A DNA stretch of 64,000 nucleotides, from assembly GCA_000004985.1 (NCBI GenBank), contig GG738864.1, one strand, 5' to 3'. The DNA comes from Naegleria gruberi (lineage: Eukaryota). The notes beneath the pieces were generated by a model. That model saw only the letters and a program-made list of their open reading frames with translations. It made no database searches and had not been told where the DNA came from. Positions 293-58,729 of the stretch are shown piece after piece. Positions within the stretch are counted from its first letter, which is position 1, and every line of letters starts with the position of its first letter. A program made the position numbers and the translations under genes.

Positions 293-1360
293 TTAAGGCT
301 GATTCATTGGTTTTTCCTTTTTCCTTCTTCTCTTCATCATGAATATTGAAATAGAGACCGCGAGAATAAACATGAGACAAGAAATCAAGCAAGCCCCAGC
401 AGCTGGCAAAGTGATGGCAACAATGAGAATGGTTTGTTCATCTCGAGGGAGATCTGGAAGTACAACATCTCGATTTTGATTTGCCTTGTCGATATTTCTA
501 TCTATAATTGTAAATCTAGTCAAATGTTTAGTCTTACAATCAATGTTGAGGTTGACTGTGTTGTTTTTCAATAATTTTACATTGGAAAGGATGGTTTCAA
601 GACCATAGGTCAACCATTCTTCTTTGAATTCATCAAAATAGGCACATGTGAAATTTGGATTGTTCAAGTCAAATGTTGAACTATTCACATTATAGGTCAA
701 ATTGTAAAATTCAATTTGAATGGGATCTACCAATCCATTCACAGGAATCAAACTTCCATTAGGAAATGTCAAAGTGATGGAAGTGATTCCACTTGAGAAT
801 TCTTTCGAATTTTCAAAAGTTGTAAGAACATTAATGTTCTCATTTCGTGAGAGACCTTGTTTTTCAAGATATTCTTCAATAGTTGGAGGGAATTCAATTT
901 TTGTAGAGTTGTTGACGAGTACTTTCTTTGAATTCAAATCGGATACTTTCGTATTTTGAACCTTTCCAATAACATTTGTAGAGTTATTGGAATTGTTGGT
1001 TGGAGGTGTTACGATGGTTTGATTTTGTTTACTGCAGTCTGGACCTATCCAACCAGTCATGCATTCACAAGTGTTCGGTTTCGAACAAACTCCTCTCGAT
1101 GAACAAACCAATGGAAAGAAATTTGGATATTGGAAACAATTAAACGTCTGGCATTGAGGACCATAGAAACCCATTTTACATGCACACATTCCATTCGCTA
1201 TACAATCACCATTTCCAGAGCAAACGGCTGGATTCGTTGACTTTTTGCCAAAGCAAACAAAAGCTGGTTGTTTTTGCAAAGTATTCGAAACATGCAACGA
1301 GAGGAATAATACAAGGAACAGAATTGAGGAGATTACATTAAAACAGCAGTTAGATGTCAT
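293..1360 (-). CDS. Type I membrane protein with EGF-like cysteine-rich modules.
   Basis: Track ORF of 355 aa with four elements. (1) An N-terminal hydrophobic signal peptide (ISSILFLVLFLSLHVSNT). (2) Repeated Cx..CxxxGxCxCxxGFxGxxC EGF-like spacing (CSGNGDCIANGMCACKMGFYGPQCQTFNC; CSSRGVCSKPNTCECMTGWIGPDC). (3) An N-glycosylation-rich stalk. (4) A C-terminal TM segment (ILIVAITLPAAGACLISCLMFILAVSISIF) followed by KRRRKKEK. Confidence 0.6.
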   Translation of the reverse strand: MTSNCCFNVISSILFLVLFLSLHVSNTLQKQPAFVCFGKKSTNPAVCSGNGDCIANGMCACKMGFYGPQCQTFNCFQYPNFFPLVCSSRGVCSKPNTCECMTGWIGPDCSKQNQTIVTPPTNNSNNSTNVIGKVQNTKVSDLNSKKVLVNNSTKIEFPPTIEEYLEKQGLSRNENINVLTTFENSKEFSSGITSITLTFPNGSLIPVNGLVDPIQIEFYNLTYNVNSSTFDLNNPNFTCAYFDEFKEEWLTYGLETILSNVKLLKNNTVNLNIDCKTKHLTRFTIIDRNIDKANQNRDVVLPDLPRDEQTILIVAITLPAAGACLISCLMFILAVSISIFMMKRRRKKEKPMNQP

Positions 1361-7631: not shown

Positions 7632-10600
7632 TCACAAAAAGGTATCAATTGTTTCTTTCAGCTTTTGTTTAGAACATGGCTTACAAATTACCATATCAAC
7701 AGTTTTCATATATTGCTCAGTAGAAAAATCAGTGAGTGCATCTGCAGTTAGCATTACAATCTTAATATTATCACCATACTTCTTCTTCAATATTGTGCTT
7801 GCCTCTAATCCATTCATATTTGGCATGTGCATATCAGTAATAACCAGTTTATGCTTGTTAATGTCGAATGCACGAACAAGTTCTTCTCCATCCACAACAG
7901 CATCTGCTGTTTGTCCAAGATGGGATAAAAGTTTCAGTAGAACCTGTCTATTAATTGCATTATCTTCTGCCACTATTATCTTGTTATTCGATGGTTCTAT
8001 ATCAGCAGGTTTGGGTTTAATATAAGGTTCCATCTTTTTTTGAGTTTTTTCGAATTGCTCCAAATAATTTTCTTGTATTTGCACTTGTCTCTCAATGGCA
8101 TTATGAAGAGTAGACAACTTGAATGTCTTGTGACCTAAATCTGTCGTTGACTTAGACTGAGCATTAGCAATGATAGACTCTCTTCTTTTGGATTCTTTGA
8201 CTGGGGATAATTTATCAATTTCCATTGGAAGTGTTAAAGTGAATGCTGTTTCATACTTTGGTTCAGATCTTAAGGAAATTACACCTCCCATTTGTTCAAT
8301 AATTCTTTTCCAAAATTAGTAATTTAAAATTATTTTCTACATACCTCTTAGTAGTACACAACCCTAAACCTGTTCCTGGACTGACACTCTCATTCAAGTT
8401 GTGTAATTGTTGGAACGGTTCAAAAATACTCTGTTGCTTTTCATAAGGAATTCCAATACCATAATCTGTCACCGAGATATCTAACCAAATCTTTGTATCG
8501 TCACTCTCTTGGGTTTGGTTGACTGAACACTTTAAATGAACACTTGTATCTGGAATGGATGCTTTGATAGCATTGGTGAGAAGGTTGATGATACACTGTT
8601 GAAGTCTGGTTTCGTTAGTTTTGACTACTAATGTTTCTAAAATCTCTTCAATTTCAAATTCAATAGTAACCTTAAATTTGTTAGCATATTTTTCCAATAG
8701 ACAAAGAACAGTTCTCAGAGATCTTGACAAGCTAAATGATACAATATTATCACGACTTTGAATTACTCTTGGAGATATAGCCTTATCAGTATTGACAATT
8801 GTATTATATGAAATGTTCTCTGTTTCATTTTGAGTGGTGGTATGCATAGTTGGAGCGGCCTTTGGTTTCTTGTGATCCAAATCGATAAATACAAGAATAT
8901 CTTCAATGAGTGTTAGAAGAATACTATTTGAGGCATGAATGATTTCCAAGTGGTCGTATTGTTCACTAGTTAGAGGTGTTTCCTTCATTAATTCTATAGA
9001 TCCTAGGGATGAAAGAAGAGGCGTTCTCAACTCGTGACTTACATGAGAGAGGAAATTATTCTTGATTTGAACTGCCTCCTTAAGTTTGGTAGCAATATTA
9101 GTTAATTTCCTATATTCTACAGAGATGTAAATACTGGCAAATACTGCAAAAAATCCAAATATCATTACCATTGAAATGGATGGATAATTTTCAATTACAA
9201 TCATTACTGCTGTTTCTATACTCATATCACTCTTATCATTCAAAAGAGAAATCAATTGATACAGCATGTAGCAAAAGTAGTGAAAAGCAATATAGTAGAA
9301 TGGAAATTGTGCCCATATCACAGTTTCAATATCATCTGTACCGTTCAATTCAAGATGCCTTGAAGGATTGTTATGTTTCTTAGAGTGCAGAATTGAATCT
9401 CTATATTTGCATGCTGCAATAGATGCAATAGAAAATAAACTCATTGGTGTTAACAACATTTTCGAGTCGGACATTAAAAACCTCAAAGTAAATAATAATA
9501 AATTGAAAAAGACCAATTGACTCGTCGAGTAATGAACAGCATAGGACGTCAGTTTGTGACTCCATGAAGAAGCTAATTCATCATCATGTGTTGGTTTTTT
9601 CTTTGCCTTTTTTTCCATTTCATTATTGTTTAAGGATGATACTCTAGAATAGGTTTTACTATCCTTATACAAATCATTCACGTAGGAAGGTAAATCTCTC
9701 AAAAAAGACCACTTGACACTGACAAATCCCAACATGCACAGCATCAACATGATTAGTGAATTAAAGAGTCCTTGTCTGAAATAAGTCGTCAGTACAAGGG
9801 ATAAATAGTCCAAAAAGACAAACATTATCATGAATTTCGTTTGTAAATCAATAACTTGTTTCCAATTCGTAAATATGGAAGGAAGGCACTGTGATAATCT
9901 CCTCGACAAAATTGCTGGTAAAATATCACTCTCACCATCACTCGAAACATTAGAAAACGATCTATTCATGTGTTGTTCTTGTTCCTGTTGGTGATAATTA
10001 TAAATATTATTGTTACTACTACTATTACTATATACATTTTCCAATCCTGATGCTAAATTATTCTCATCATGATCATTATCCAATGATGAACAATTATTGG
10101 CCATCGATTTAGATTTCCTCATGCATAAATTCGCATCAATGATATTGTCCAGCGACATCTTCTTATTATTGTATTTCATATTATTATTATCATTTTGCGT
10201 AGTGGGTAGAAGAGGATTTTCAGTCAAATGATGACTATGCCTCCTTTTCAAAATACCCGAAGGTGATGATTGCATGCGGGAAAGAAGTGAAGGAGAAAAG
10301 GAAGCTTGAATGAAGGAGGAAGAGGATTGGGAGGATGATAAACTTGTACCTTCTCTTTTTGTTGGTATTTCCTCTTCTTCTAAATGACTTGTATCGATGG
10401 AATTCATATTGGAAAAGAATTCATCATCATTGGTGATGGAATTATTTACTTGAAAGTTTTTGGACAGTTTCATACGATAATTAGCTAATGCTCTAGCTTC
10501 CTCATGCATGTGTTGTTGTGGTGGCACCATCGTATCATCAGATGTGGTTGATGGTGAGGATGATGTTGTTTTTGTATTTGAAATGTCTGTGGTATCCGAG

Positions 10601-11097
10601 GATGGTATTTTTCCACAAGAGTAAATTGTCGTGGATAACAATGATGATGGAACAGCAACACTACTAGAATATGATGTTGTGAGGAGGTTGTTGTTGTTGT
10701 TGTAATTGTTTGGATGTTGTTGTTCGGATACTTTCTTTTCAGCTGCTGATGTATTCTTTTTAAAATTGCAATCCTCTTCTAGAATGTGAGAAGCAGAATC
10801 ATTGATTGACTGCCCAAACATGTTTATCTTTCCCATTTGTGTTTGCCAGTTAGTATTTAAGGGTAGCTGCTTATCAGCACCACATATTTCAGATACCTTA
10901 GTGTGCTGCTTAACAAAGTCTTGTGCAGATTCGCTTTGAAAAAGATCATTGACCTTTGTTGAAGTTGTTGTGCATGCAGATGCATCTTGATGTTTCAAGG
11001 TTGCTGATAATGTCGCTGCTACCTTGTTAGTATCGGTAGAGTTCATTTTTGGATAAACCCCAATGTTGGACTGCGCAGTGTTTTGTGATCTTTGCAA
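7632..11097 (-). CDS. Hybrid sensor histidine kinase: N-terminal Ser/Asn-rich region, about 6 TM helices, HisKA, HATPase_c and a C-terminal CheY-like receiver; one 40-nt intron.
   Basis: - H-box: FLSHVSHELRTPL.
- N-box: IINLLTNAIKAS.
- G1: VTDYGIGI.
- G2: GTGLGLCTTKR.
- The HATPase domain is split by a 40-nt intron. Minus-strand donor GTATGT at 8344, acceptor AAG at 8305.
- The second exon (8304..7632) continues ...IIEQMGGVISLRSEP, completing the ATP lid.
- It then encodes a receiver domain with the phospho-acceptor context IVAEDNAINRQV...LVITDMHMPNMNG...MLTA...CKP.
- Six hydrophobic helices lie between residues ~420 and ~640. Confidence 0.85.
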
Positions 11098-12303: not shown

Positions 12304-13170
12304 TTAATCGTATTGAACATCAACATACTCAGAATAATCCTCATCCCAAGGAAATAACATCATGATTGGTTCGAATAGGAGTCTATCTCTTAACTCTTCC
12401 TTGATGGTATCAATGCAAAAACCAAGTTCCTCTCTAATCGATTGCAATTTTTTTCTTGAAACCTTTACAATTCCATCCTCAAGTTTTTCGGCCAGATAAT
12501 TTTTGTAATATTCCATAATCCAATATGAATTATAAGCTCCATAATCAAATGAACATGTAAATTTGAGTTTAACCTCTCCAATAGAAACAATTGCTGTATT
12601 CTTTAAACTTCCATCCATTTCTTCTTCAGTCATTCTAACTAATTGATATTTTTCGAATAGATTCTTTTCGAATAATGTAGCGATTTCCTTTCCATGATCC
12701 TTTTCAATCCTGTCCAAATATCCTCTAAATTGCTCAAATTTTTGTTCAGTCGTATTTCTGATAACAATTTTATCTTTTACATTTTTTGTAAATCCTTCAA
12801 TTTGTGACAAACAATTTTGTAATTGTTCTCCATATTTACCATTTCTCAATTTCCCGTCTCTGCTAAACTTGGATTTGGTAGTATAGTTCTTCATTGCTCG
12901 GGTCACTTCCTTCACCAATCTGTATGAAATAAACAAGTGATGATTCGAATAAAGTGCTCGATAAATAGTTTTACAAGTCAGGATGAAATCTAATCCTTCG
13001 CTCGGATCATAAATAAAATCAAGAATTAAACCTAAAATTTCATCTGGTAATTGACATAAATTTGCACTGGTAATAAAATTATTGTTGTCGTGCGTCAATT
13101 TAACAAATTTTGATTTGGTCTGCTGATCGGACTTTGCTGAATAGTGTCGTTTCATTTTTTTTAAAAACAT
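12304..13170 (-). CDS. Hypothetical protein with an F-box-like N-terminal motif.
   Basis: 288-aa ORF. The LPDEILGLILDFIYDPSEGLDFILTCKTIYRAL segment fits the F-box LPxEIL..IL pattern. The remainder is helical/charged with no recognisable domain. Confidence 0.45.
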   Translation of the reverse strand: MFLKKMKRHYSAKSDQQTKSKFVKLTHDNNNFITSANLCQLPDEILGLILDFIYDPSEGLDFILTCKTIYRALYSNHHLFISYRLVKEVTRAMKNYTTKSKFSRDGKLRNGKYGEQLQNCLSQIEGFTKNVKDKIVIRNTTEQKFEQFRGYLDRIEKDHGKEIATLFEKNLFEKYQLVRMTEEEMDGSLKNTAIVSIGEVKLKFTCSFDYGAYNSYWIMEYYKNYLAEKLEDGIVKVSRKKLQSIREELGFCIDTIKEELRDRLLFEPIMMLFPWDEDYSEYVDVQYD

Positions 13171-14450: not shown

Positions 14451-15171
14451 TTACATTACGGAACATGTGTCACAAATTCCAAATCTCCTGTTCTTCTTCT
14501 TTTCTGGAAGAAGAGTCTCTGCATTATCATGATCTTCTCCATCAGGTGATTGAGAGGTAAATCTATCAATAACCAATCCAACAAGAGAAGTTTCTAGTGA
14601 TGATGATGAGTCATTCTTAGCACTCAATTCAATATATGGATAATTGAATTGGTTTGCCCATGATTTTGCTGTATTAATGATCTTTTCGCAATGCCTCCTA
14701 TTAAAATCAGTAATTTCATCAGTCTTGTTGGCAACTATCACAAATCTTGGTTGAGTTAGAAATGTTAAATTAGAAATAATGAGAAACTTACGGAAAGCTT
14801 GTTGTGGAAATTGATAAACCGGCTTGAATTAAAAATTCTTCTCTCCACTTATTCAGGGAGTTTGCACTTTGTAAATCCGTTACTGAAAATACCAGGCAAA
14901 CTACATCAATATCACGATAAAAAGCAACTGATAAAGAGGCATACTTCTCCAATCCTGCATTATCCCACAGCTGCAGCTTGTAGGATTCATCCTTATAATC
15001 TATAGCTTGAGAATTTAAACAGTCACTTCCGATTGTTGGTGTATAATTTGTATCAAATTGGTCATATACCAATTTTTCAATAATTGAAGTTTTTCCTGAT
15101 TCTCCATTCCCTAAAAATAATACTCTCAATGTTTTTGGAGTTTCTAAATGAGATCCCACTATCGATTTCAT
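14451..15171 (-). CDS. Rab/Ras-like small GTPase with a CaaX box and a switch-II Gln-to-Leu substitution; 2 exons.
   Basis: - G1: LFLGNGESGKTS.
- G2: YTPTIG.
- G3: WDNAGLE (canonical WDTAGQE).
- Exon 1 is 15171..14792, followed by a 46-nt intron (GTAAGT donor at 14791, acceptor AAG at 14746).
- Exon 2 is 14745..14451. It gives FVIVANKTD (G4 NKxD), ELSAKN (G5) and C-terminal CDTCSVM, a CaaX prenylation box. Confidence 0.8.
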
Positions 15172-15948: not shown

Positions 15949-17256
15949 ATGATGACCGATGTAAGTGATTCGTACATGTGGTTATTTTCTTACTACTAAT
16001 CAAATAATAAGGTTTCCAAGTTTTCGAAGGAATCCGAAAGATATGCCTTCTTAGTATCGTATTATGATTCTCTTGCTGGATTTGATAGAGAATATCAATT
16101 ATTGTATTATACATTTGATGAAACAATTGAAATGGTTTGTTTTTATGTTCCGATTCAAGAAATTTAACCATCATCATGACAATAGTATGATTGCAAGACA
16201 AAGAGAGTCTTCCTCAAGAGGTGTACTTATCCTGAAGTAACATTAAAATCATTATATAAGGGTGCGATCGTCACCATTAATAGTCGTCAACTCAAAGTTG
16301 TGGAGTATTCCGATGAATTCACTAGAAAGAACTTTGGAGACAAGAAGAAGAGGTAAGATGAACCAATATAATTGTAAATAATTCTAACACTAAATAGAAC
16401 TTTGGCCATGATAAAACCTGATGGTGTTGTAAATATGGGAGAAATTATTGATAGGATTTGTAGAGAAGGATTTCAAATTTCCAAAATGAAAATGACTGAA
16501 CTCACCACTGACTTGGCACAAACCTTCTACAGTGTCCATAAAGGAAAATCATTCTATGATACACTTGTGGCTTACATGACAAGTGGCCCAATTGTAGCTC
16601 TTGAACTTGTGGCTGAAGATGCTGTAGCTAAGTGGAGAGAATTAATCGGACCAACTGATTGTGTGCAAGCTAGACAAGTAGCACCAAACTCAATTAGAGC
16701 TCTCTATGCAACTGACAAGACTCACAATGCAGTGCATGGCTCAGATTCTGACGAAAATGCCACAATCGAGTCTACCTTTTTCTTTGGAGGACAAGAACAA
16801 ATTCCAACAACAGCAACATTCCAAAATTGTTCCCTGGCCCTCCTTTTACCTCACATTGTTTCAGATAGAATGGCCATAGGGAAAATATTAATTGAAATTC
16901 AAAAATCTGGACTTGATATTACAGCTATGGAAGTGTTTTCTATTGGAAAGACAGATGCTTCGGATTTCTATGAAGTTTATAGGGGTGTGAGCCCAGATTT
17001 CCAAAAGATGGTCTTGAATTTGTGCTCTGGACCTATAATTGCATTGGAAGTGTCAACAAAGGAGCCAAATGATGTTGTCACATATTTGAGAAATGTTTGT
17101 GGTCCTAGTGATCCAGAACTTGCAAAGGTATTGAGACCAGACACTATCAGAGCCAAGTTTGGTGTTGACAAGGTTAGAAATGCTATTCATTGTACAGACC
17201 TAGAGGATGATGGTGTTTTGGAAGTTGAATTTTTCTTTAATCTTATGCAAAAATAA
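15949..17256 (+). CDS. NME7: NME7-like nucleoside diphosphate kinase 7 (DM10 domain plus two NDK domains); 4 exons.
   Basis: - Exon 1: 15949..15960 (MMTD).
- Exon 2: 16012..16134 (VSKFSKESERYAFLVSYYDSLAGFDREYQLLYYTFDETIEM).
- Exon 3: 16186..16352 (YDCKTKRVFLKRCTYPEVTLKSLYKGAIVTINSRQLKVVEYSDEFTRKNFGDKKK).
- Exon 4: 16398..17256, two tandem NDK folds (TLAMIKPDGV...; ...LLLPHIVSDRMAIGKIL...).
- Introns: 51 nt (GTAAGT), 51 nt (GTTTGT) and 45 nt (GTAAGA), each ending in (A/T)AG.
- Exons 2-3 align to the DM10 domain consensus (ERFAFIAEWYD...YELLFYP.DGSVEM...RTFLKRTKY...NVFSRQL).
- Total ~386 aa, close to metazoan NME7 (376 aa). Confidence 0.8.
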
Positions 17257-43390: not shown

Positions 43391-45391
43391 GTGAACAATG
43401 TTAACGGCAAAATCAAGAAAAAAACCACAACAATGCAAGCAAGTTTATTGACAATTTATTGTCTGTTCTTTTTCATTGCCGTAAAAGTTGTGAATGCCCA
43501 AACGTGCACAGCCTCTTCTTTGATCTCCAATTTTACATCCAGTCAAGCTTTATCCGTACGATGCCAAGTTGGTTATGCTGCTGACACTCATCAATTACAA
43601 TGTAGACCTTACGATGTTGTCTTTAATGAAAATTATGGTAAGCCATGTAATTTCACAAGTGAATGTTTATTGTCATTTGTGTGTAGTGATCTATCAAAGA
43701 TTTGTGTTCCTTCCAAATCAAGAAAACTTGGGGAGCCATGTCTTGCAAGAGAAAGCTGTGTTGCTGACCTCGCTTGTGCCAATGGGATATGTGCACCACT
43801 TGTTGATAGTTATGAAAAGAAATTAGGAGAAAAATGTAGATACTCTGACTATACAACTAACAAGTATTACTACTGTGCAAGCCCAAATAAGTGTGACTAC
43901 ACAACCTATCCTAATTACTATTGTTTTGAGAATGTTTACAATGGTGTTGGAGGTTTTTGTGGTATCAATGAAACCTCTTTCCAATTTGTTCTTTGTAATC
44001 CTGGGTCTCTTTGCAATTCTAAAACTCAAAAGTGTGTCACAACCTATTACAATGCAACACTTGGTGATGCATGCAATACGTTCACAACAGATTCCTTCAT
44101 TGATTGTAAATCTCCATTCTATTGTGATGCTGGAAAATGCTTTGCTTCAGCATTTGTTGGAGCTGGTGAGTCATGCAATTACAAAAATACTACTTCATAT
44201 ATCATGAATTATTGCAATAGTAATTTCTTTTGTGGTCCAGGATCAAAGTGTGCAACATCAATTTCATCTCCGTTGGGTGGTTATTGTGGACTGAATGGTA
44301 CTGATTACTACTCTTGTGCTTCTGGTACTGCTTCTTGTTATATTGATAAGTGTGTTCCAAATGTTAAGTCGAACGTTGGTGGATTGTGTGAAATTGTAAA
44401 CTCTACAGGATCATTTTCTTGTAACTCTTCATTATATTGTTTCAATAATACTTGTATGGAAAAGGGTAATTTGGGTCAAAGTTGTGAACACAATACTAAT
44501 TCATGCAACTTGGGTTTAGTTTGTAGATCTGTGCTTCTTGGGAGTAGTCCAAGAACATGTGAAAATCCTGGCAAGAAATATGATAATTGTACATCAGTAT
44601 CTGATTGCCAAAGAGAATTATTTTGCAAAAGATCTAAGTGTACTAACCTGAATGGAGATCCTGTTGGATCGACATGTACTTTCCACTCTGATTGTGATTC
44701 TGGATTATGCTTGAATAACATCTGCTCATTGAATTACAATGAAACTACATGTTCAAGTGACACAATTTGTTCGAATTATGAGTCCAAGTGTTCGTGTGGT
44801 TCAGGGAAGTCAACATCAAACAGTTCAGGAAAATGTGCTAGTCTGAAGAGATGTAACGCTCTCCAAAGCAATATCAATGTCTGTCTTGGTAACAATGCAA
44901 GAGGTCCTCTTTTGACAACCATCTTTGACAAGTACAGTTCTGTTCACAAGGCATGCGCCAAAGAATTCTCTCAATATTATTCATGCTTAAGAATTGGATT
45001 GACCAATGCAGGAAATGTTCCTGCTTTACCCATTTCTGGTTTAGATATTAATGCAGATTTCGATATTGACCCAGCTCCTACCAAGTTTTACAAGTGTGGT
45101 GCTACCATTAGTTTAGGTACTAATACATGCTCAGGAAATGGTGATTGCGTTGCTGATGAAGTGTGTAAATGCTACTCTGGGTACTTTGGATCATATTGCC
45201 AAAGTAAAGTTATTCCAAAGCCATCAAATCCAATTGTACCAAACAAGTCCCTAGGTAATAATAATGGAGGAGGAAGTAATAGAAATGAAACTAATCCTAC
45301 TTCAGGATTTGCTGCAAATAATTCGAAAGAAAATCTATTGCTGCTTACCTTTAACATGATCATCTTGTTTCTGGGTATCAGTTTCCAATAA
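43391..45391 (+). CDS. Cysteine-rich secreted, probably GPI-anchored, surface protein with EGF-like modules.
   Basis: - Signal peptide after the second Met (MQASLLTIYCLFFFIAVKVVNA; probable start about 43433).
- More than 90 Cys in repeated CxxxxxC...CxxGxC spacing.
- One clear EGF-like module near the C-terminus (CSGNGDCVADEVCKCYSGYFGSYCQ).
- Ser/Asn-rich stalk.
- C-terminal hydrophobic tail (ENLLLLTFNMIILFLGISFQ), consistent with a GPI signal. Confidence 0.6.
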   Translation: MNNVNGKIKKKTTTMQASLLTIYCLFFFIAVKVVNAQTCTASSLISNFTSSQALSVRCQVGYAADTHQLQCRPYDVVFNENYGKPCNFTSECLLSFVCSDLSKICVPSKSRKLGEPCLARESCVADLACANGICAPLVDSYEKKLGEKCRYSDYTTNKYYYCASPNKCDYTTYPNYYCFENVYNGVGGFCGINETSFQFVLCNPGSLCNSKTQKCVTTYYNATLGDACNTFTTDSFIDCKSPFYCDAGKCFASAFVGAGESCNYKNTTSYIMNYCNSNFFCGPGSKCATSISSPLGGYCGLNGTDYYSCASGTASCYIDKCVPNVKSNVGGLCEIVNSTGSFSCNSSLYCFNNTCMEKGNLGQSCEHNTNSCNLGLVCRSVLLGSSPRTCENPGKKYDNCTSVSDCQRELFCKRSKCTNLNGDPVGSTCTFHSDCDSGLCLNNICSLNYNETTCSSDTICSNYESKCSCGSGKSTSNSSGKCASLKRCNALQSNINVCLGNNARGPLLTTIFDKYSSVHKACAKEFSQYYSCLRIGLTNAGNVPALPISGLDINADFDIDPAPTKFYKCGATISLGTNTCSGNGDCVADEVCKCYSGYFGSYCQSKVIPKPSNPIVPNKSLGNNNGGGSNRNETNPTSGFAANNSKENLLLLTFNMIILFLGISFQ

Positions 45392-45776: not shown

Positions 45777-48700
45777 ATGAAAGCATGTTTTTTCGTTCTA
45801 CTCTTGCTCTGCATCTTTCTGTTCAGCCTTGCAAGTCAAATTGACTCACAAAGCCTTCAATATAATATCAGCACGGTTGCAGGTGGTGGTTCTATTGTGG
45901 GTGATGGTTTATTAGCTAATGAGGCTATAACAAGCTACCCGTGTCAATTGGCAATTAGTTCGATTAGTGGAGATTTGTTTTTTGGAGAGGTGGTATCCAA
46001 TAGGATTCGTAAAATTACATCCTCAACTGGTGTGATATCTACTATTGCTGGAACTGGAACTGGTGCATATGGTGGAGATGGCTCCATGGCTACTGCTGCT
46101 CAATTGTTTTATCCTTATGGTGTTGCTCTAAGTTTGGGTGGTGAAATTTATATAGCAGATTCGAATAATAATAGAATTCGTAAAATAGCTACAAATGGTA
46201 TTATTACAACAATAGCAGGAACTGGAACACGTGGATATGATGGAGATGGTGCTTTGGCCACAAGTGCCAAGTTGAATTTTCCTTCATCCATAGCAATTAG
46301 TGCAACCAATGAAATTTATTTCACAGACCAATTGCAATCATAGGATTCGAAAAATAGCAACTAATGGTAATATCTCAACAATTGCAGGAACTGGAACTGG
46401 CAGCTATGGTGGTGACAATGCAATTGCAACAGGTGCACAACTTTATGCACCTGCATGTATTGCAATAGATTCTAATGGTGAATTTTACATTTCCGATTCA
46501 ATGAACCATCGTATTCGAAAAATAGCTACTAATGGTATTATTACAACAATAGCAGGAACTGGAACACATGGATATGATGGAGATGGTGCTTTGGCAATTA
46601 ATGCACAATTATACAGCCCCACGGGGGTTGTTGTCAACTCAAATGGTGATGTTTATATTGCTGACTCAGGTAATAACAGAATTCGAAAAATCTCAAAAGG
46701 ATACATCTCAACAGTAGCAGGAAATGGAATAGCTGGATATAGTGGAGATGGTGGACTATCAACAAGTGCTCAATTAGCCACTCCCCAATCAGTTGCTATT
46801 AATTTAAATGGCGAGATTATAATTGCAGATTCTAATAATAATAGAATTCGTAAAATAGCAACTAATGGAAAAATTTCAACAATTGCTGGAACATCATCAT
46901 TTGGAAATAACATACCAGCTACTTCAGCATCCATCTCACCAGTTGGTGTTCCCACTCTCTACAATAATAAGATAATTTTCGCAGATGAATCTCAAATTAG
47001 ACAAGTAGACCTTGCAACTAATATCATTTCATTAATATCTGGAACTGATTATTTGGCAAGTCCTACAGCAGCTATGTATTTCAACAATGAATTATATATT
47101 CTCTATTCAAAACTCAATTTAGATAAGCCAAAGATTAATATTGTTTCAAGAGTTGTTGGTTCTGAGGGATATAATGGCGATGATATTGCAGCCACTAGTG
47201 CACTGTTGAATTATGCTCGCTCAATTGCTGTCAATTCAAATGGTGATGTTTATATTGCTGACACTTATAATAACAGAATTCGTAAGGTCTCATTTTCAAC
47301 TGGAATCATTTCAACAGTAGCAGGAACTGGAATTGCTGGACAAAATGGTGATGGTAATTTAGCTACAAGTGCACAACTAAATTTTCCTTCAGGAGTTGCT
47401 GTGAGTTCAAATGGTGATATTTATATTGCTGACACTGAAAATCATAGAATTCGTAAGATAGAAACTAATGGATACATTGCAACAGTTGCAGGATCTGGAG
47501 CATCTGGATATAGTGGAGATGGTGGGCTGCTAACTAGTGCTAAATTCCAACAACCTCAAGGAGTGGCTGTGAGTTCAAATGGTGAGATTTATATTGCTGA
47601 CACTGAAAACCATGTGGTTCGTAAAATTTCAACTTCGAATGTACTTTCTACAATTGCTGGAACTGGTTCTTATGGATACAATGGTGACGGTGGATTGGCA
47701 ATTACTGCAAAATTATTCTCTCCCATAGGAGTTGCAATAAGTTCGAGTGGTGAAGTTTTTATTGCTGATAATAACAATCACAGAATACGTAAAATTGCAA
47801 AAGATGGCTATATTTCAACAATTGTTGGCACTGGTTTGAATGGGTATGATGGAGATGGCGATTTGGCTACGAATGCTAAATTGGGTAATCCTCAAGGTGT
47901 GACTCTAAGTCCAACTGGTGAATTGTTTATTGCTGACCAAAACAATCATAGAATTCGTAAAGTAGCAAGTAATGGATATATTTCAACTGTTGCTGGTAAT
48001 GGTAACTTTGGATTTAGTGGAGATGGTGATTTGGCAACAAATGCTGAATTGAATAGTCCTTCAGGAATAGCATTCAGTTCCATTGGTACCATGTATATTG
48101 CTGATCGTTTAAATAGAGTAATTCGAAGAGTAATCTCTGGTAATATATCCACCATTGCTGGAGGTGTTGGTGATGGAGGACCAGCTACTGGAGGATACAT
48201 TCAAGCACAATCATTTGACATTTCTTCAACTGGTGAGATTTATATTGCTGACACTGAAAATCATAGAATTCGTAAAGTTTCAACATTGGGTAAAATTTCA
48301 ACTATTGCAGGAACTGGTGCAATGGGATACAGTGGTGATGGTGGATTGGCAATTACTGCAAAATTATCCTCTCCCGTAGGAGTTGCAGTTAGCTCAACTG
48401 GTGAAGTTTTTATTGCAGACCGAGACAACCATAGAATTCGTAAAGTAACACTTTCTGGTATCATTACAACCATTGCAGGAAATGGAACTAGTGGTTTTAA
48501 TAGTGATGGAATTGAAGCAAAATTTGCTCAATTGAATAGCCCTTCCTCAGTCACAATTTCAGGTGGTGAAATCTATATTGCTGACACAAACAATCATAGA
48601 ATTCGTCAAATATCCAATACTGGTATTATTAAAACAATTGCTGGAAATGGATTTGGTGGATATATTGGTGATGGTGTATTGCCACCTAATGCTCAATTGA

Positions 48701-51700
48701 ATAGTCCTTCAGGAGTTGCAATTTCTTCCACTGCTGAAATTTACATTGCAGAAAATAAGAGAATTAGAAAACTTACAGCGTTCTGTACAGAGAATGGTGT
48801 GTTGATTGATGGAAAGTGTGTATTTCAATGTTTTGGATATACGAATAGTAATTCCTCACTTGTTTGTTCTGGAAAGGGCAACTGTATTGGAAATGATAAG
48901 TGCAACTGTTCATGGCCATACTCTGGTTCCAAATGTGATGAGTTTTATTGCAATGGAGTGTTGAATACTAACAAAACATTTGTGTGTTCATCTCATGGTA
49001 CTTGCTCATCTCCAAACAATTGTTCTTGTGTCGATGGTTTTTATGGAAATATTTGTGAATTCTTTTATTGTAATGGCGTACAACAAAATAGTTTAAATGT
49101 ATGCTCAGGTCATGGACTCTGCTCTTCTTTGAATAATTGCACCTGTCAACAAGATTATTCAGGCATTGATTGTGAAAATTTCCATTGTTATGGACTGTCT
49201 AGAGTTGATCCTAAAGTTTGCTCATCTCATGGAATTTGCTCTTCCATAAATAATTGCTCATGTGCAACTGGATATGGTGGATCTAAATGCAACGAATATT
49301 CATGTTATGATGTGAATTCTACGAATAAGACAGTTTGTTCTGGAAGAGGAACTTGTTCTTCTCCCAATAATTGTACATGCGATCCAGGATACTATGGATC
49401 AAATTGTGAATTGTACGATTGTTATGGAATATCCAAAAACAATTCGAATGTCTGCTCAGGACATGGTACTTGCATTGCTATCAATAATTGTACATGTACA
49501 GATGGTTACTATGATACCAAATGTGATTCATTCAATTGTGCAGGAGAGAAATTCACTGGTCAATCACTGTGTCAGAATAATGGTACTTGTTCTAATCCTG
49601 GTAATTGTGATTGTCCTTATCAGTTTGGAGGTGCCAGATGTGAATATTACAAATGTTATACCTATACTTCTAATGAAGCAAAAGTATGTGGCGGGCATGG
49701 TACTTGTTTAAATTACAATAATTGTTCTTGCTCTGGCAAGTGGATTGGTGACGATTGTACACAGACTACTTGTTATGGTAAAAGTTCAAACTCTAGCTCA
49801 GTATGTGGTGGAAGAGGTAATTGCACAGACTTTAATCAATGCACATGTTATGATGGGTATAGAGGTGTCGAATGTCAACACATTGTCTGTTTTGATAAGA
49901 TTGAAAACGATACATCAGTTTGTTCAGGAAATGGCAAATGTCTAACATCAAACAATTGTACATGTCAAATTGGTTATGTTGGAAATGAATGTCAATATCA
50001 CGAAATTTATTTGAATACCTCATCTGCCATAATATTTTCATTCCAGGAAAGTTTAATGAAATTGTTGCCAAATGAGAGTGGAATATTTTCATGTTCTGAA
50101 ATTTTCACTGATTCTGAAATTGCCAAATTTGGAGAAAGTACTTCGATTTCTTGCCAATGGAGAAGAAATTCACTCCTAATTCATCTTGGATTTGATTATT
50201 CTATTCAACAATACTCAATTATTCAATCAAAATTCAACTTTTCAATGAGAGTTTCTAGCTTGTCCTCAGTTTCTAATAGTGATGCTCCATCTCCAACTTG
50301 TTCTTTCGGATATGTATTGAATGAAGCTTCTCCATTATTGGATGTAGTGATACGTTTGAATTGTGATGAGAATTTGCATGGTTTTAAAAAGAGTAGAACC
50401 AGTTGGATGTGTAGTCAATGTACAGGAGCAATTTCATCAATTTTAAGTAACTATTCGAATAGATCCAGTGTTTATATTCCAATTTCGTATATGAACGCTT
50501 TGAATCCTGTTCAAGGATACAAGACAATTAATTTGCAAGCTTCTTATTCATCATCTGTTTCTTCCACCATTTCCACTAGTAAGGAAGTAAAGGTTCAAAC
50601 CTATACGAAATCTTTACCTCCAAGTTATTACTGGCTAAGTGATAATTATGATGGAAAAACCTATTCATGTGTTGGCCATAATTGTATCATTGAAACTTCA
50701 TTGAATAGTTTAAACTCCTCAATTTCTTATTCATTCTCTGGTTTATTTAGTTTATTGAACACTGATTTATATTCGAAACAAATGGTGAGATTGATAAATG
50801 AATTTTCAGGAGGAATTGTCGACAGTGAATTCAGTTCTAACATGCAAGTTTTTGGAGTTCAACTCAAGACCTATGTTTACTTACCGTATAGTATTGATTC
50901 ATTCAAATATTCCACATTTACAAATTTGGATTATGTCATGACAGGCGTCAATAGAACCTACTCAATCAATGCAGATAACTTAATAACTATAGGTTTGACT
51001 ATTGATGATCCATACATTTCAAAATACACATTAAGTGATTACATGGTATTCTCCTGGAAATGTTTCCAAGTTTCTCCTTCTAATAGGTCTTTAATTTTGA
51101 CCGATAATTTGTGTTCCTCAATAACTGACAATGCCAAATCAAATATTGAATTGGATATCAGCAAAATGTCTTTGAAAGAAGGTTCATATTTAATATCTGC
51201 TTCAATTTCATCGACTAAATACTTTGTTACAACAGTTTACAATTATGAAGGATGGATTGACTTGTTGGGAATTTCACAGGATTCTCCTCAGATAACTACA
51301 GATTATGTACCTGCTATTACTCCTTCTCATCACAATATTTATTTAAGAAATGTGGTGAAATCTTCAACAAGTGTTTCATTCTATTGGAAACTCAAAAGTG
51401 GTGAATTGAATATTGACGAAACTGTTGAAGATTTCCTTCAAAGAAATACAGTTTCTAAATCTATCTTGGGTAACAATGTTGAAATTATCTTGAATATTGA
51501 CAATGATTATCTCATCCAAGGAGAATATTATGAATTTGAATTGTCAACCAAGAATTCTAACGGTGTTTCAAATATTTCCATTTCAACAAGAATGGATTTC
51601 ACTCCTCGATTGTCATGTAATGTGGAAAATGTGAAGAATGAAGCTAACTTGACCAGTTTTGAATCTTTAATATCTATTACATGTGTAAAATTGCCATACG

Positions 51701-54134
51701 AAAGTATATCAAGTTTCGTCATGGAATTCCATTCACAAAACGAAAGATTAGGAGTCATTTCGAATACTCCAAAGAAGGCTCTTATTACCAGAGTTCCTTA
51801 TGCAATGGATGGAACAGTTACCTTAATCGTGAAACTTCAAAATTTATATGGATCTATTGGAATTTATAGAACTACTATCAGCGCTCAATTACCAAATGCT
51901 TTGACAAGTGACAACTCTATTTCTTCAAGATTTACATATGTATCCAAACAATTCCAAATTCTCAAAAATGCTCAACCAGCCAAAATTGAAGTTTCCAACG
52001 AAGTCAACACCTTACTTTCTTTATTAATCCAAAACGAAACTCTTTCTAAAATTTCAGAGAAAATTTCAAAGGAATTGAAATCTGATCAATTAGTTTCCTT
52101 TAATACAATGCTCAAAGAAATGCTAACCCTCACCAAGAGTCTACAAGACATTACTTACAAAGTTGATGAAAGATTAATTCAATTAATTCTGCCAATTGTC
52201 AACAAAATTTCCACAATTCTCAAATTAACTCTTGACACATCGTCATTATCCAATTTTGCTTCAGAATTGGAAATTTGGTTGGACTGGATTTATTCAGGAA
52301 TGAATAAGGCACTCAATTACTATCCAACTTTCATTTACAAGGAATTATTAGATGAATTTCATTTACAAGAAATTGTTTCGTTACAAAATATACTTTCGAA
52401 TATATACCAAAATAATTTGGATCAACAATTTAAATACCACAAGTACAATTTACAATATATCAAGCTTACAGGAAGTAATAGTGATAATTCAAGCTTTGTG
52501 GAAGATGTTGAGTTTTCTGATTTATTGAATGACAAGTCAATTTCACTTTCTGTTTCTAATTTTAAAGTTGATATGAAATTACCAAGTGATTTTACCAATC
52601 AAATTTCATTGAAATCAAAATCAAAACTATACTATTCCATTACCTCATTCAGTGATAATCAAACTGGTTCAAAACTTTTACAAAACAAACCAATAATTGA
52701 CCTATCTCTGTACGATACATCTTACAATGCAATATCAGTTGACAACATTAATCCACCAATAGTTTTCAAGTTCCAAGGATTGTTTTCCACTAACAAGACT
52801 AATATTAACACAACTTGTGTCTATTACAATACCATACTAGGAAAATGGTCAACCAATGGATTGCAAACAATTACAAGCGTTACCAAACGAACTGAAGAGT
52901 ACATGTACTTTGATATGGAATGTCATTCAAGTCACTTGTCTGTATTCTCAGTTCAAGAGGTTGATTACAACACCCCAATTATACCAGCCATTTCATCTAA
53001 CAAAGCTTCAAACCAACAAGAAAATCTCACCATTATTTTAGCTACTGTTTTACCTGTTAGCTTTTTAATCCTTATTTTCATTATTATCCTCTTTGTGTTT
53101 ATCATTTTACTATTCAGATTTAAGCAAAAGAAAGCAAATGAATTTGCCATTGCAACCAAAACCAATCTTGAAATGGAAGGTTTCTCAAGCAGTGATTTCC
53201 CATCCTCAGAAGGAAGCATGTTTATTCATCCTCTTATGAGTATTTCCTCAAATGGAACAACTAGTGAAGCATTCAATCCATTGTCAAGATATTCTGATTT
53301 AGTAAGAATTGGCCAAGGAGCTTTTGGAAGTGTTTTTAAAGCATTTGATAGTAAGACGTCAACTGTTAAGGCGATTAAGGTAATTAAATATTCATCCATG
53401 GAGGAGTTGAATAATTTCATGAAAGAAGGAACGCAGTTGATGAATGTGACACATCCTTATATTTTGAGAGTGAATGATTTCTTTGTGAGTAAGGATCAAT
53501 TGCTATGTATAGATATGGATTTTTATGAATTAGGAGATTTGGTCAAATTGACCAATGTTGAATTTGATTGCTCGGAGAAGTTAATCAAACAAATTATTTA
53601 TCAAATGTGTCAAGCTTTGGATTATATTCACTGCAATATGAAAATCATTCACAGAGATATCAAACCATCTAATGTTTTTGTAAAGAGTATGGAAAATGAC
53701 GATATTCACATTATTGTTGCCGATTTCGGATTGGCTAAATCAAATATTGGTGGATCAATGAATAATTCCTATGCAGGTACACCTATATTTATGGTAAGTT
53801 TTCAAATATTTCTTTCGATTCGAATAATTTTTAGTCTCCTGAACTTGGCTTGGGTGGAAAATATTATTACAATACTGATATTTACAGTTTAGGTGTTACT
53901 GTATATCAAATAATGACCAAAGACACCTCTACTTCAATCAGTCAATTGTATCTTGGAAAGGAACAAAATGAAGTTACAACGCTATTGAGAAAAAAGCTTA
54001 AAGATGGTGGACATTATTCTGAACGAGTTGTGGAATTGGTTTTACAAATGTTAACAAAGGATAATTTAACTAGGCCACAAGCTCAAGATATTTTGGAAAA
54101 TTCCTATTTTGATGATTTGAGAATGAAACGATAA
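45777..54134 (+). CDS. Giant receptor-like Ser/Thr kinase: signal peptide, ~25 NHL repeats, ~20 EGF-like modules, ~1,300-aa unknown ectodomain, TM and protein kinase. Interrupted by an apparent +1 frameshift near 46328 and by one 41-nt intron in the kinase domain.
   Basis: - Track ORFs 45777..46343 and 46300..53892 encode the same ~55-aa NHL unit (...NHRIRKIATNGIITTIAGTGT.GY.GDGG.AT.AQL..P.GVA....GEIYIAD..) in two frames.
- Deleting one C from GACC at about 46328 restores ...EIYFTDNCNHRIRKIATNG..., matching the repeat consensus.
- EGF-like units: CSG.G.C...N.C.C..GY.G..C.
- TM segment: LTIILATVLPVSFLILIFIIILFVFIILLF.
- Kinase motifs: GQGAFGSVF, VKAIKV, HRDIKPSNVFV, DFGLAKS, GTPIFM.
- Donor GTAAGT at 53794, acceptor TAG at 53834.
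- The last exon runs from 53835 and encodes SPELGLGGKYYYNTDIYSLGVTVYQIMT...RP.A.DIL.., through to 54134. Confidence 0.7.
45990..48790. repeat. Tandem array of about 165-nt coding repeats (NHL units) with the recurring core aatcatagaattcgtaaaat.
   Basis: The nucleotide motif (a/g)a(t/c)(c/a)a(t/c)agaat(t/a)cg(t/a)aaaat(a/t) recurs about 20 times at 150-170 nt spacing across the 5' third of the giant gene. Confidence 0.7.
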
Positions 54135-56686: not shown

Positions 56687-58729
56687 ATGAGTGGTGCTGA
56701 TTTTGTGTTGTCTGCCACTACTACCAATAATAACAATGGTGATGATACTATTCATCAAAAGATACAATTATTTACTCAAGCTATTGGTGAGGTAGACCAA
56801 GAAGGAAAGTCAACAACTAATGCAAGTAGTGCTCGTAGGTGGAGTTTTTCATCAGATTCTTCATCCTCCTCTTCTCATTCGTCAAATTCATCATCGGGTG
56901 CAGATGATACTGCTGATGATGAAGATGAAGAAATAACAATGGTTTGGAATAATGCAACTGACAGTAATGTTGATAATAATATTGAAACTAGTGTTACAAC
57001 TCCTTTGAATAATAAGATTGTTATTATTACGAATGAGGAGGACATTGGAGAGGAAGAAAATACATTATCAGACTCATCAGATATTATTTCGAATACTTAT
57101 AATTCAATAGAACAGAAGGAAGAAGATAAACCAGTCGTACCTTCTTATGAAAAGTTTAGTTTGAAAGAACAGTTGAAACTCAAGCTTCCTTCTTCAATAC
57201 TTCATCTCACTTCTCCTAATAACACAACTAGTAATAATAACAGTTCAACACAATTTACAACAACAACACTAACAGACAATAGTTCAAAATCAAGCTCTCC
57301 ACAAACACCAACCGAGAAACCAACAACAAATGGTGATGAATCACTGCAAATCATGGAATTAAATATTGAAAGTCCAAATGAAGAGTTAGACGATACATCG
57401 AGGAGATTTACATTCAATTCTACCGATATTATCAAGGCAGTTTTTGAAGGAAAACACGATGAGGAAGTTGGAAAACTGTTACAAACAGATGTTTCTGATT
57501 ATTTAACACAACTAGTCAAGAGGAAAAATCAAATTACCAATCCAGTGGTGATGCCGAGTCCCTCTCCTATCAAGAGGATGAACTCTACCTTCCTCACTCC
57601 TTCTACACCTTTAGGGATGACAAAGTCTGGCTCATCTAGTGATATATCCAGTCCTTGTTCATCACCAAATTTGGACAAATTGAATACAATTATTGAAAAG
57701 AAAAAACTTTCCAGGTCTAATACTACTGTTCACAATTATACACTCTCCCCAGAATTAAAGCAGAGAAGAAAAATTACAGCAATTGGATCCGGAATGATTC
57801 CAAATGATTTTAATATGGTACAATCTCCATTGAGTGATTATGGAATTGATTTTTCACAATCTGATAGCAAAATAACTGCTTCCAAAAGGTCGATGAGCAT
57901 TGGGCCAAATCTTCAATCCTACTATTCTTCATCTACAAATGCAATGAAGAGTGATCCTAACTCTGTTTCAACAGACGATATTTACAGAGTTACAATTCTA
58001 GGATCTGTTGGTGTTGGAAAATCATCATTAATTAACAAATTTATTAAGGGAACATTCTCCAATGAGTATAATTCTACAGTTTTCGAGGATATTTATCACA
58101 AGCCACTCATGTTTTTGAAATATCAGGAAATTAAGCTTTTGGAAATATTGGACACAAGTGCCCTACACATCAAACATTACAAAAATAAGGCAAATCAAGA
58201 GGATGAATCACCATCCATGGAGATACCTTCAAGTTTTCTTAGTGATTATATTATTAACTGTGATGCATACATACTAGTGTACAGTGTGGATGACATTCAA
58301 AGTTATAAATATTGTAAGGATATTTACAAATCAATTGTCGGTCAGAAAAAGATGGCTGGTCTTAAAAGAACTAGATCAAACTTGAGAGCTAGTGGAAACA
58401 GTCTCATAGCAACGCCAAGAACAGTTGCTCGATCTGATGTTCCTCTTGTCCTTGTTGGAAACAAGTCAGATGTTGGAATTGAGGAAAAATTTATTGATTC
58501 AAAAGTAGTTTGGGAAGATGTACATACAGAGCTAGCATTTGGTTCAAATTGTTCTTTTGTGGAAACTAGCGCCAAGAAGGAAGATGTTGATTGTATTTTC
58601 CAAGCACTTGTAAATAGAATTTGTTTGAGGGAAGAACCAAAGACTTCTTCCAAAATACAAATATCCTCTTCACTTCCAACCAAAAAGACAGGTCAACACG
58701 ATTCAAATAAAAAGTGTGTCATTCTGTAG
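56687..58729 (+). CDS. Ras-like small GTPase domain (C-terminal, CaaX box CVIL) fused to a ~430-aa Ser/Thr/Asn-rich N-terminal extension. Switch II lacks Gly and Gln (DTSALH).
   Basis: - G1: ILGSVGVGKSS.
- G2: YNSTVFED.
- G3: ILDTSALH (canonical DTAGQE).
- A ~30-aa insert follows.
- G4: LVGNKSD.
- G5: ETSAKK.
- C-terminal KKCVIL is a geranylgeranyl-type CaaX.
- The N-terminal extension is low-complexity (SSSSSHSSNSSSGADDTADDEDEE; NNTTSNNNSSTQFTTTT). Confidence 0.7.
   Translation: MSGADFVLSATTTNNNNGDDTIHQKIQLFTQAIGEVDQEGKSTTNASSARRWSFSSDSSSSSSHSSNSSSGADDTADDEDEEITMVWNNATDSNVDNNIETSVTTPLNNKIVIITNEEDIGEEENTLSDSSDIISNTYNSIEQKEEDKPVVPSYEKFSLKEQLKLKLPSSILHLTSPNNTTSNNNSSTQFTTTTLTDNSSKSSSPQTPTEKPTTNGDESLQIMELNIESPNEELDDTSRRFTFNSTDIIKAVFEGKHDEEVGKLLQTDVSDYLTQLVKRKNQITNPVVMPSPSPIKRMNSTFLTPSTPLGMTKSGSSSDISSPCSSPNLDKLNTIIEKKKLSRSNTTVHNYTLSPELKQRRKITAIGSGMIPNDFNMVQSPLSDYGIDFSQSDSKITASKRSMSIGPNLQSYYSSSTNAMKSDPNSVSTDDIYRVTILGSVGVGKSSLINKFIKGTFSNEYNSTVFEDIYHKPLMFLKYQEIKLLEILDTSALHIKHYKNKANQEDESPSMEIPSSFLSDYIINCDAYILVYSVDDIQSYKYCKDIYKSIVGQKKMAGLKRTRSNLRASGNSLIATPRTVARSDVPLVLVGNKSDVGIEEKFIDSKVVWEDVHTELAFGSNCSFVETSAKKEDVDCIFQALVNRICLREEPKTSSKIQISSSLPTKKTGQHDSNKKCVIL

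Follow-up and report, generated by a model that had tools for sequence, protein, structure and literature searches.

RabX17 of Naegleria gruberi, a probable offshoot of the Rab7/Rab9 group with a natural leucine in place of the switch-II glutamine

In a window of 64,000 nucleotides of Naegleria gruberi DNA (NCBI GenBank assembly GCA_000004985.1, contig GG738864.1), we analyzed the gene of the small GTPase RabX17, in which a leucine occupies the position of the catalytic switch-II glutamine. The gene is intact and selectively maintained. RabX17 is a lineage-restricted paralog of the Rab7/9 group with a Gln-to-Leu replacement like that of Rab25, and it is a modest curiosity, not a novel type of protein. 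With fair confidence, we propose that this maintained offshoot of the Rab7/9 group would hydrolyze GTP slowly, be switched off, if at all, by a TBC-type GAP, be activated independently of Mon1-Ccz1 and carry a prenylated tail.

Gene structure, orthologues and the leucine codon

On the minus strand, a 127-codon open reading frame starts from the ATG at position 15171, and a second open reading frame in another frame ends with the TAA at 14451-14453. When every GT..AG pair was tried as an intron, one combination had a consensus donor. The intron chosen in this way has a CTAAC branch-like element, the spliced product carries on the GTPase fold, and G4, G5 and the CaaX box share the frame of G1 to G3 only once the intron is removed (Table 1). 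The spliced protein of 224 residues is identical over its full length to XP_002677992.1 (EFC45248.1, D2VDJ8), which the deposited annotation of N. gruberi NEG-M describes as a ‘rab family small GTPase’. The boundaries given by the first-pass annotation, 14451-15171, are exactly the start and stop codons of this annotated gene. The window is AT-rich, with a G+C content of 32-37%, and by this identity it is nuclear DNA of N. gruberi. A look-up of contigs that encode the protein turned up no intronless copy of the kind derived from transcripts.

Table 1. Features of the RabX17 gene and of its protein, with positions in the window
Feature	Position	Strand	Details
RabX17 whole gene, start to stop codon, 224 aa	14451..15171	-	Open reading frames and splicing; match to XP_002677992.1
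Exon 1: residues 1-126 and two bases of Pro127; G1, G2, G3	14792..15171	-	Donor CC/GTAAGT (slash marks the exon end)
Intron, 46 nt, spliceosomal, phase 2 in Pro127	14746..14791	-	GTAAGT...TTCTAAC...AG; splice-site test
Exon 2: last base of Pro127 to Met224 and TAA; G4, G5, hypervariable tail, prenylation motif	14451..14745	-	
G1 P-loop GNGESGKT, residues 21-28	15088..15111	-	Asn22 for the usual Rab Asp; Glu24 at the Ras Gly13 position
Switch I YTPTIG, residues 43-48	15028..15045	-	Thr46 is the G2 Mg2+ ligand; Thr44 at the Rab7/Ypt7 Lys38 position
Switch II G3 WDNAGLE, residues 69-75	14947..14967	-	Leu74 codon TTG at 14950-14952, replaces the catalytic Gln
G4 NKTD, residues 133-136	14718..14729	-	Guanine specificity
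G5 SAK, residues 168-170	14616..14624	-	
Leu205-Leu206 pair, hypervariable tail	14508..14513	-	Candidate REP/GDI C-terminal interacting motif, from sequence; invariant in three orthologues
C-terminal CDTCSVM	14454..14474	-	CaaX box Cys221-Ser-Val-Met; second conserved Cys218

The motif set of the Ras superfamily is found in order in RabX17 (GNGESGKT, Thr46, DNAG, NKTD and SAK), and the protein matched the Pfam Ras family (PF00071) with E = 7.6e-32 and 110.6 bits, against a cutoff of 21.6, which chance would not give. The AlphaFold2 model (mean pLDDT 82.6) has a confident G domain with the Ras-like alternating order of beta-strands and helices, followed by a disordered tail. Leu74 aligns with Gln67 of human Rab7A, the equivalent of Ras Gln61, and Asn71 replaces the Thr of DTAGQ. 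Both replacements had been pointed out in the first-pass annotation; the leucine lies at exactly the Ras Q61/Rab7 Q67 position of the alignment, and the asparagine was read codon by codon in WDNAGLE. A search of PDB sequences gave Rab7a with E = 5e-29; the top-scoring PDB sequences are engineered Rab7 Q67L mutants. The RabF-type motifs of RabX17 are IGSDC (IGSDF in the orthologues), KLQLW, KYASLS, FYRDI and LVFSVT, and the RabF consensus that Pereira-Leal and Seabra reportedly described in 2000 reads IGVDF, KLQIW, RFRSIT, YYRGA and LVYDIT. At least one RabF motif is needed for a Rab call by Rabifier (PMC3192815). The initial description of the protein as a Rab-like GTPase agrees with the Pfam match and with best PDB matches that are Rabs only.

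Orthologues were found in Naegleria lovaniensis (236 residues, 65-66% identity to the N. gruberi protein, tail CGNCSIL) and Willaertia magna (211 residues, 55-56% identity, tail GCCTIQ), and their exon structures were rebuilt from the genomic loci. A partial Naegleria-type model has 59% identity over 48% of the query, with the tail outside the covered part, and another Naegleria-type fragment of exon 2 ends in ICGNCLIM. The first-pass annotation had proposed looking for the same leucine in orthologues, and it is present as WDSAGLE in N. lovaniensis, in W. magna and in the partial model. N. gruberi and N. lovaniensis share the intron inside the Pro codon, both in position and in phase, and N. 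lovaniensis and Willaertia have in common an intron that immediately precedes the Trp of WDxAGLE. A hybrid histidine kinase gene adjoins the gene in both N. gruberi and N. lovaniensis. Comparison of the three species gave saturation at synonymous sites (pS 0.71-0.88), a pN of 0.22-0.31 and a pN/pS of 0.25-0.40. The leucine at the catalytic position was fixed before the split of Naegleria and Willaertia. A PH+LRR gene and an RCC1-like gene adjoin the orthologues in N. lovaniensis and Willaertia but are absent beside the N. gruberi gene, and the gene neighbourhood was dropped as a clue to function.

It is highly improbable that RabX17 is a decaying gene or pseudogene, or that the Leu codon is a sequencing or assembly error. 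N. gruberi does have many divergent Rab-like loci, some of them pseudogenised according to the supplementary text of PMC8296547, and we counted for decay the Cys that N. gruberi alone has in place of the conserved Phe of the IGxDF motif. Decay is opposed by the intact reading frame with its canonical intron, by nonsynonymous change far below the saturated synonymous change and by the five G motifs, all of them conserved in three genera; RabX17 also carries no pseudogene flag in the searchable portion of Herman et al. (PMC8296547). An error at the codon would have to account for two or more base differences between TTG and CAA or CAG, and independent assemblies of N. gruberi, N. lovaniensis and W. 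magna agree on Leu by two different codons (TTG, CTT and TTG, respectively). Because the leucine, synteny, introns and low pN/pS agree across independent assemblies, both readings fall. The early statement that G1 to G5 are all present and that the gene is not a pseudogene stands, with the motifs confirmed codon by codon, the frame intact and the orthologues under selection.

Affinity of RabX17 for Rab7 and Rab9

A clade profile made from the three orthologues was run against all PDB sequences, and gave 131-140 bits for Rab7/Ypt7, 112-118 for Rab9, 94-99 for Rab6 and about 90 for Rab23 and Rab1. The best 60 of 856 and 662 PDB sequence matches were all Rab/Ypt/Sec4 proteins. In BLASTP against a panel of 16 reference GTPases, of which the human sequences served as labels only, here and in the trees, Rab7A came first for every clade member; local identities were 40.8% (N. 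gruberi), 43.4% (N. lovaniensis) and 37.2% (W. magna). The global identity of RabX17 to human Rab7A is 35%, and the Rabifier threshold for a subfamily is 40%. Foldseek comparison of the AlphaFold2 model with the PDB also returned Rab7 and Rab9 as the best matches, and the fold predicted by the model is the Rab7/Rab9 fold. The segment W(R/K)(D/E)EF(L/V)IQA...FPFV(V/I), which is characteristic of Rab7/9, is conserved in RabX17 as WREEFLIQA...FPFV.

An exhaustive HMM search over 1.84 billion representatives found no closer family; the single-domain relatives that came nearest in it were Acrasis kona KAL0487816.1, its paralogue P0211 and the metagenomic sequences P0063 and P0210. Multi-domain tandem GTPases stood at its top with scores summed over their domains, and single-domain matches were used instead. 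These Acrasis-type relatives share with RabX17 the LGN P-loop, E(R/K)YQGLSV, EF(V/L)IQAGLS, the loss of Lys38, a tail with the LL pair and an ending of the CaaX type. They differ in that they keep the Gln (VDTAGQE), or have Asp in A. kona (VDTAGDE), lack the Trp before the DxxG motif, have an N-terminal extension of about 15 residues, and carry adjacent cysteines (CCaaX) where Naegleria has CxxCaaX. The A. kona model P0138 is without NKxD and looks faulty or decayed, and was set aside for P0211.

Two neighbour-joining (NJ) trees were computed with 200 bootstraps each, P0211 replacing P0138 in the second. Naegleria and Willaertia grouped with 100% bootstrap, the Acrasis-like group also had 100%, and the two groups came together with 62-82%. 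The clade joined Rab7 and Rab9 with 71% and 87% in the two trees, Rab7 with the clade and without Rab9 had 7.5%, and HRAS and RAN fell outside. On the question of placement raised in the first-pass annotation, the profile and the NJ trees favor Rab7/Rab9, and not Ran or Ras. From the NJ trees and the score gaps, RabX17 is probably a heterolobosean-specific offshoot of the Rab7/Rab9 group. Judged by its sequence it is not a true Rab7, as Lys38, Gln67 and the CXC tail are all missing. An affinity for Rab6 was set aside; it came from the first homology search, where mainly Rab6-named matches stood below the orthologues after a word-seeded candidate step, and both the profile and the exhaustive searches put Rab7 first.

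Because Table S8 of Herman et al. 2021 pairs XP_002677992.1 one to one, as orthologues, with N. fowleri RabX17 (NfowleriV212_g12060.t1), the gene was already catalogued (PMC8296547). In that study, RabX17 is labeled a ‘divergent lineage-specific paralog’, the published ML analysis gives the gene as RabX without a subfamily, and N. gruberi has separate Rab7a (XP_002678716.1) and Rab7b (XP_002673479.1) genes (PMC8296547). A full-text search for XP_002677992, EFC45248 and D2VDJ8 found none of them in main texts, and the accession in one supplementary table. The searchable text of PMC8296547 holds no comment on the Rab7/9 affinity, the leucine or the tail of RabX17, and g12060 of N. fowleri occurs there in the GTPase table only and is absent from those differential-expression tables that are searchable as text. 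The affinity for the Rab7/9 group, as read from sequence, is added here to a paralog that the literature had left unassigned.

Membrane anchor and nucleotide switch

The tails recovered in the clade end in CDTCSVM, CGNCSIL, CGNCLIM, CCTIQ, CCVTM, CCNLM and CCIIL. Each of them has two cysteines, and the equivalent of Cys218 is present in the three Naegleria-type tails (CxxCaaX). An LL pair lies 12-15 residues ahead of the prenyl cysteines, also in the Acrasis-like relatives. In the Rab7-REP structure, the REP-binding hydrophobic motif of Rab7 is at a similar distance from the cysteines, and by analogy the LL pair may be a REP/GDI-binding motif. Rab11 (CCQNI) and Rab25 (CCISL) are examples of Rabs with CCXXX, a standard motif of the family. 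The first-pass annotation had described the ending as a CaaX box instead of the Rab CC motif. The CaaX box is there, but a second cysteine, Cys218, is kept, and in Willaertia and the Acrasis-like relatives the ending is CCaaX, the accepted CCXXX motif of Rabs. The ending had also been called unusual for a Rab-like protein, whereas CaaX-ending Rabs are a known minority, in which the aaX is cleaved after prenylation and the new C-terminus is methylated (PMC5716267). With this minority and the CCXXX of its relatives, the tail is a variant Rab anchor and not evidence against Rab identity.

We propose that a prenyl group on Cys221 would anchor RabX17 to membranes, and that Cys218 would probably carry a second lipid. 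The last four residues, CSVM, do fit the farnesylation-type CaaX named in the first-pass annotation, with Met as X. By the CaaX rule, X = M, S, Q or A leads to FTase and X = L to GGTase-I (PMC5716267). Across the orthologues X is M, M, L and Q (CSVM, CLIM, CSIL and CTIQ), a variation in the sequences that fits the motif-blind RabGGTase without proving it. The route by REP and RabGGTase is the likelier one because the two-cysteine tail would descend from the Rab-type CCXXX, and CSVM also fits farnesyltransferase.

An anchor like that of H-Ras or N-Ras, in which Cys221 would be farnesylated by FTase, SVM removed, the C-terminus methylated and Cys218 palmitoylated, seems to us unlikely, and equally so the targeting to the plasma membrane and Golgi, independent of REP and GDI, that would come with it. 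Such an anchor would suit the CxxCaaX spacing, which resembles the H-Ras tail CMSCKCVLS, and the FTase-type Met of CSVM (PMC5716267). It would leave unexplained the CCaaX endings of the sister lineages, which match the CCXXX motif of Rabs, and the conserved LL pair, whose spacing is as expected of a REP/GDI-binding tail motif. The flips of X between M, L and Q would mean a switch of enzyme, which is unexpected if one CaaX enzyme had been selected, and in mammals the CaaX Rabs first receive geranylgeranyl groups and are processed afterwards (Leung et al. 2007, cited in PMC5716267).

Since all nucleotide- and Mg2+-binding elements are present in the sequence, RabX17 should bind GTP. Leu74 in place of Gln, together with a charged residue at the Ras-G13 position, would be expected to slow intrinsic hydrolysis and give a long-lived GTP-bound state. 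The first-pass annotation went further and equated the leucine with that of engineered constitutively active mutants. Taken as a statement on function, this would make RabX17 a locked-on, non-cycling GTPase, in which Leu74 and the non-Gly residue at Ras-G13 abolish both intrinsic and GAP-stimulated hydrolysis; we regard that as rather unlikely, and likewise the control by expression level, lipidation or degradation that it would call for, as in the farnesylated atypical Rho proteins Rnd and RhoH. In its favor, every Naegleria and Willaertia orthologue conserves Leu at the catalytic position, the P-loop has E, E and R at the Ras G13 equivalent in N. gruberi, N. lovaniensis and W. magna, and the CSVM and CLIM boxes are of the farnesyl type, as in Rnd proteins. 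The Gln mutants of Rab1 and Rab35 are poor substrates of TBC GAPs, and largely refractory to their own (PMC3919270). On the other side, mammalian Rab25, whose WDTAGLE is natural, ‘retains an active GTPase activity’ (PMC3039820). Rab GAPs with a TBC domain provide the Arg as well as the Gln in trans, so that the Gln of the Rab itself has no direct catalytic part, and its mutation has consequences that vary from Rab to Rab (PMC3919270). Gln mutants of Rab5 and Rab33B have lowered basal hydrolysis with GAP-stimulated hydrolysis intact, the Rab5 Q79 mutant being fully GAP-sensitive, and Rab35 Q67A cannot be activated by its GEF (PMC3919270). Since Rab6 usually carries Ser at the G13 equivalent, the lack of Gly there is not by itself disabling, and Glu24 as a strong sign of GTPase deficiency was toned down.

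Because Rab25 hydrolyzes GTP and TBC GAPs supply the Gln, constitutive activity is not implied by the leucine. Given the behavior of Rab1 and Rab35 as against that of Rab5, its consequence could by analogy run either way. In the cycle that we favor, RabX17 would not necessarily be locked on, and a TBC-type GAP with Arg and Gln fingers could switch it off, as for Rab25 and the Gln mutants of Rab5 and Rab33. Its activation would probably proceed without Mon1-Ccz1. This GEF inserts Lys38, which is strictly conserved in Rab7, into the Mg2+ site, and K38A lowers the catalytic efficiency tenfold (PMC5216073); Mon1-Ccz1 is probably unused because the switch-I Lys that is pushed into the Mg2+ site is Thr in RabX17. 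By descent from Rab7/9, the endolysosomal or phagosomal system would be the likely site of action.

Within the clade, the catalytic position holds Leu, Gln or Asp, a variation suggesting that the cis-Gln is under relaxed constraint. Of the switch-II motif instances in the 205 proteins collected, about 13% are without Gln, and two unrelated tandem GTPases also carry Leu there; thus natural replacements are not rare in divergent Rab-like proteins. It is conceivable, though doubtful, that this lineage gave up the cis-catalytic Gln more than once, for Leu in the branch of Naegleria and Willaertia and for Asp in A. kona, with Gln kept in other Acrasis-like sequences, and that its members would serve as a long-lived or permanent GTP-bound mark on membranes, set independently of Mon1-Ccz1 and removed by an extrinsic off-switch, the trans-Gln of a TBC GAP, or by turnover.

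Significance and comparison with known systems

RabX17 is one of about 90 Rab-like loci in the N. gruberi genome, and the general picture is unchanged by it. The main value of the Leu/Gln/Asp series in the clade is as a natural test of the switch-II Gln of Rabs and of its dispensability. If the proposed behavior is true, RabX17 and its Gln-bearing Acrasis-like relatives would be a natural pair for probing the role of this residue. Q-to-L mutants are in routine, and at times mistaken, use as ‘constitutively active’ tools (PMC3919270). The Rab7/9 affinity is a hint that Naegleria, the genus of the brain-eating N. fowleri, may have an additional endolysosomal or phagosomal pathway. Overall, the first-pass annotation was right on the identity of the protein and the reality of its substitutions, and overstated their functional meaning and unusualness in view of Rab25, TBC GAPs and CaaX Rabs.

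Rab7/Ypt7 and Rab9 are the best matches of RabX17 in sequence, profile and structure. RabX17 shares with Rab7/Ypt7 an intact G1 to G5, with Phe39 and Tyr43 corresponding to F33 and Y37 of Ypt7, and a hypervariable tail with a hydrophobic pair ahead of the prenyl cysteines. It is 35-41% identical to human Rab7A and differs from it by the Leu for Gln67. The P-loop of RabX17 is GNGESGKT and that of Rab7 is GDSGVGKT, the tail is CxxCaaX instead of CXC, and the switch-I Lys38 of Rab7 is replaced by Thr44 in Naegleria and Willaertia and by Glu in the Acrasis-like relatives.

Rab8, Rab13, Rab18 and Rab23 resemble RabX17 in having a C-terminal CaaX box and no CC or CXC, but they belong to other subfamilies, have a single cysteine and keep the catalytic Gln. 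In Rnd and RhoH, natural changes at Ras positions 12/13 and 61 go together with a CaaX(M) box of the farnesyl type, and these proteins are an analogy only: they are Rho family proteins with a measured GTPase deficiency, whereas RabX17 is a Rab with the sequence correlates Leu74 and Glu24 alone. Rab25 (Rab11c) is the only well-known natural Rab with WDTAGLE, and its tail, CCISL, is a CCXXX like the CCaaX of the Willaertia and Acrasis-like relatives. For Rab25, retained GTPase activity is an experimental finding, whereas RabX17 is known here from its sequence. In the NJ trees, Rab25 belongs to the Rab11 group and RabX17 to Rab7/9; thus the leucine that the two proteins share is convergent.

A residue of RabX17 at a Rab7 effector-binding position and the gene models of its relatives

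Alignment of the Rab7/Rab9-group GTPase RabX17 with its orthologues from N. lovaniensis and Willaertia showed that N. gruberi is the only one of the three to carry Cys where the Rab motif IGxDF has Phe. This residue, Cys52 (codon at window 15019-15021, minus strand), gives IGSDC in N. gruberi, whereas both orthologues have IGSDF. In the alignment, Cys52 occupies the position of Rab7 Phe45, a member of the effector-binding hydrophobic triad.

The Willaertia gene model requires a 15-nt micro-exon (8262-8276 of L002, the Willaertia magna locus) that encodes part of the switch II motif WDSAG. The RabX17 relative of Acrasis kona is present in two near-identical copies, P0138 and P0211, and the G4 motif NKxD is absent from P0138. 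Either the gene model of P0138 is faulty or this copy is decaying.

Genes flanking RabX17 and its orthologues

The hybrid histidine kinase downstream of RabX17 is in synteny with N. lovaniensis (10270-13875 of L001, the locus with the RabX17 orthologue), and its two ORFs presumably form a single spliced gene. Between the histidine kinase and RabX17 lies a 288-aa ORF that had no match in the Pfam search and that lacks a counterpart at the same place in N. lovaniensis. On the other side, a spacer of about 1.2 kb separates RabX17 from a two-domain nucleoside-diphosphate-kinase ORF, and the two are divergently transcribed.

The RabX17 orthologues of N. lovaniensis and Willaertia magna each have a PH + LRR gene of the TMOD-LMOD type directly upstream, encoded on the strand of the orthologue itself, and an RCC1-like/WD40_RLD gene within 6 kb. 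In the N. gruberi window, neither a PH + LRR gene nor an RCC1-like gene adjoins RabX17. The association of these genes with the RabX17 orthologues may reflect a partnership that has been conserved, or it may be no more than leftover synteny.

Features of the window and of the orthologous loci
Feature	Location	Strand	Details
Smaller teneurin-type EGF ORF	window 293-1360	-	
Hybrid histidine kinase	window 7632-11097	-	HisKA + HATPase_c ORF, then receiver-domain ORF
288-aa ORF	window 12304-13170	-	F-box-like LPDEILGLILDFI segment
Tandem nucleoside-diphosphate-kinase ORF	window 16402-17256	+	2 domains; Pfam NDK, E = 1e-72
Smaller teneurin-type EGF ORF	window 43391-45391	+	
2530-aa uninterrupted ORF	window 46300-53892	+	11 NHL repeats, teneurin-like EGF domains, protein kinase
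680-aa ORF	window 56687-58729	+	Ras domain from residue 435; match in 2 pieces
501-aa ORF	window 61397-62902	-	Ras-family domain, residues 155-320
PH + LRR and RCC1-like/WD40_RLD neighbours, N. lovaniensis	L001 5293-7288 and 13920-15734		
PH + LRR and RCC1-like/WD40_RLD neighbours, Willaertia magna	L002 6147-7873 and 4565-5993		

Receptor-kinase-like and Ras-superfamily ORFs

The protein kinase domain of the 2530-aa ORF is C-terminal, and the domain combination is a receptor-kinase-like architecture. Besides RabX17, the 64-kb window contains two more Ras-superfamily genes, and in one of them, the 501-aa ORF, a long N-terminal extension precedes the Ras-family domain. The presence of these two extra genes is in keeping with published accounts of large GTPase expansions in Naegleria.
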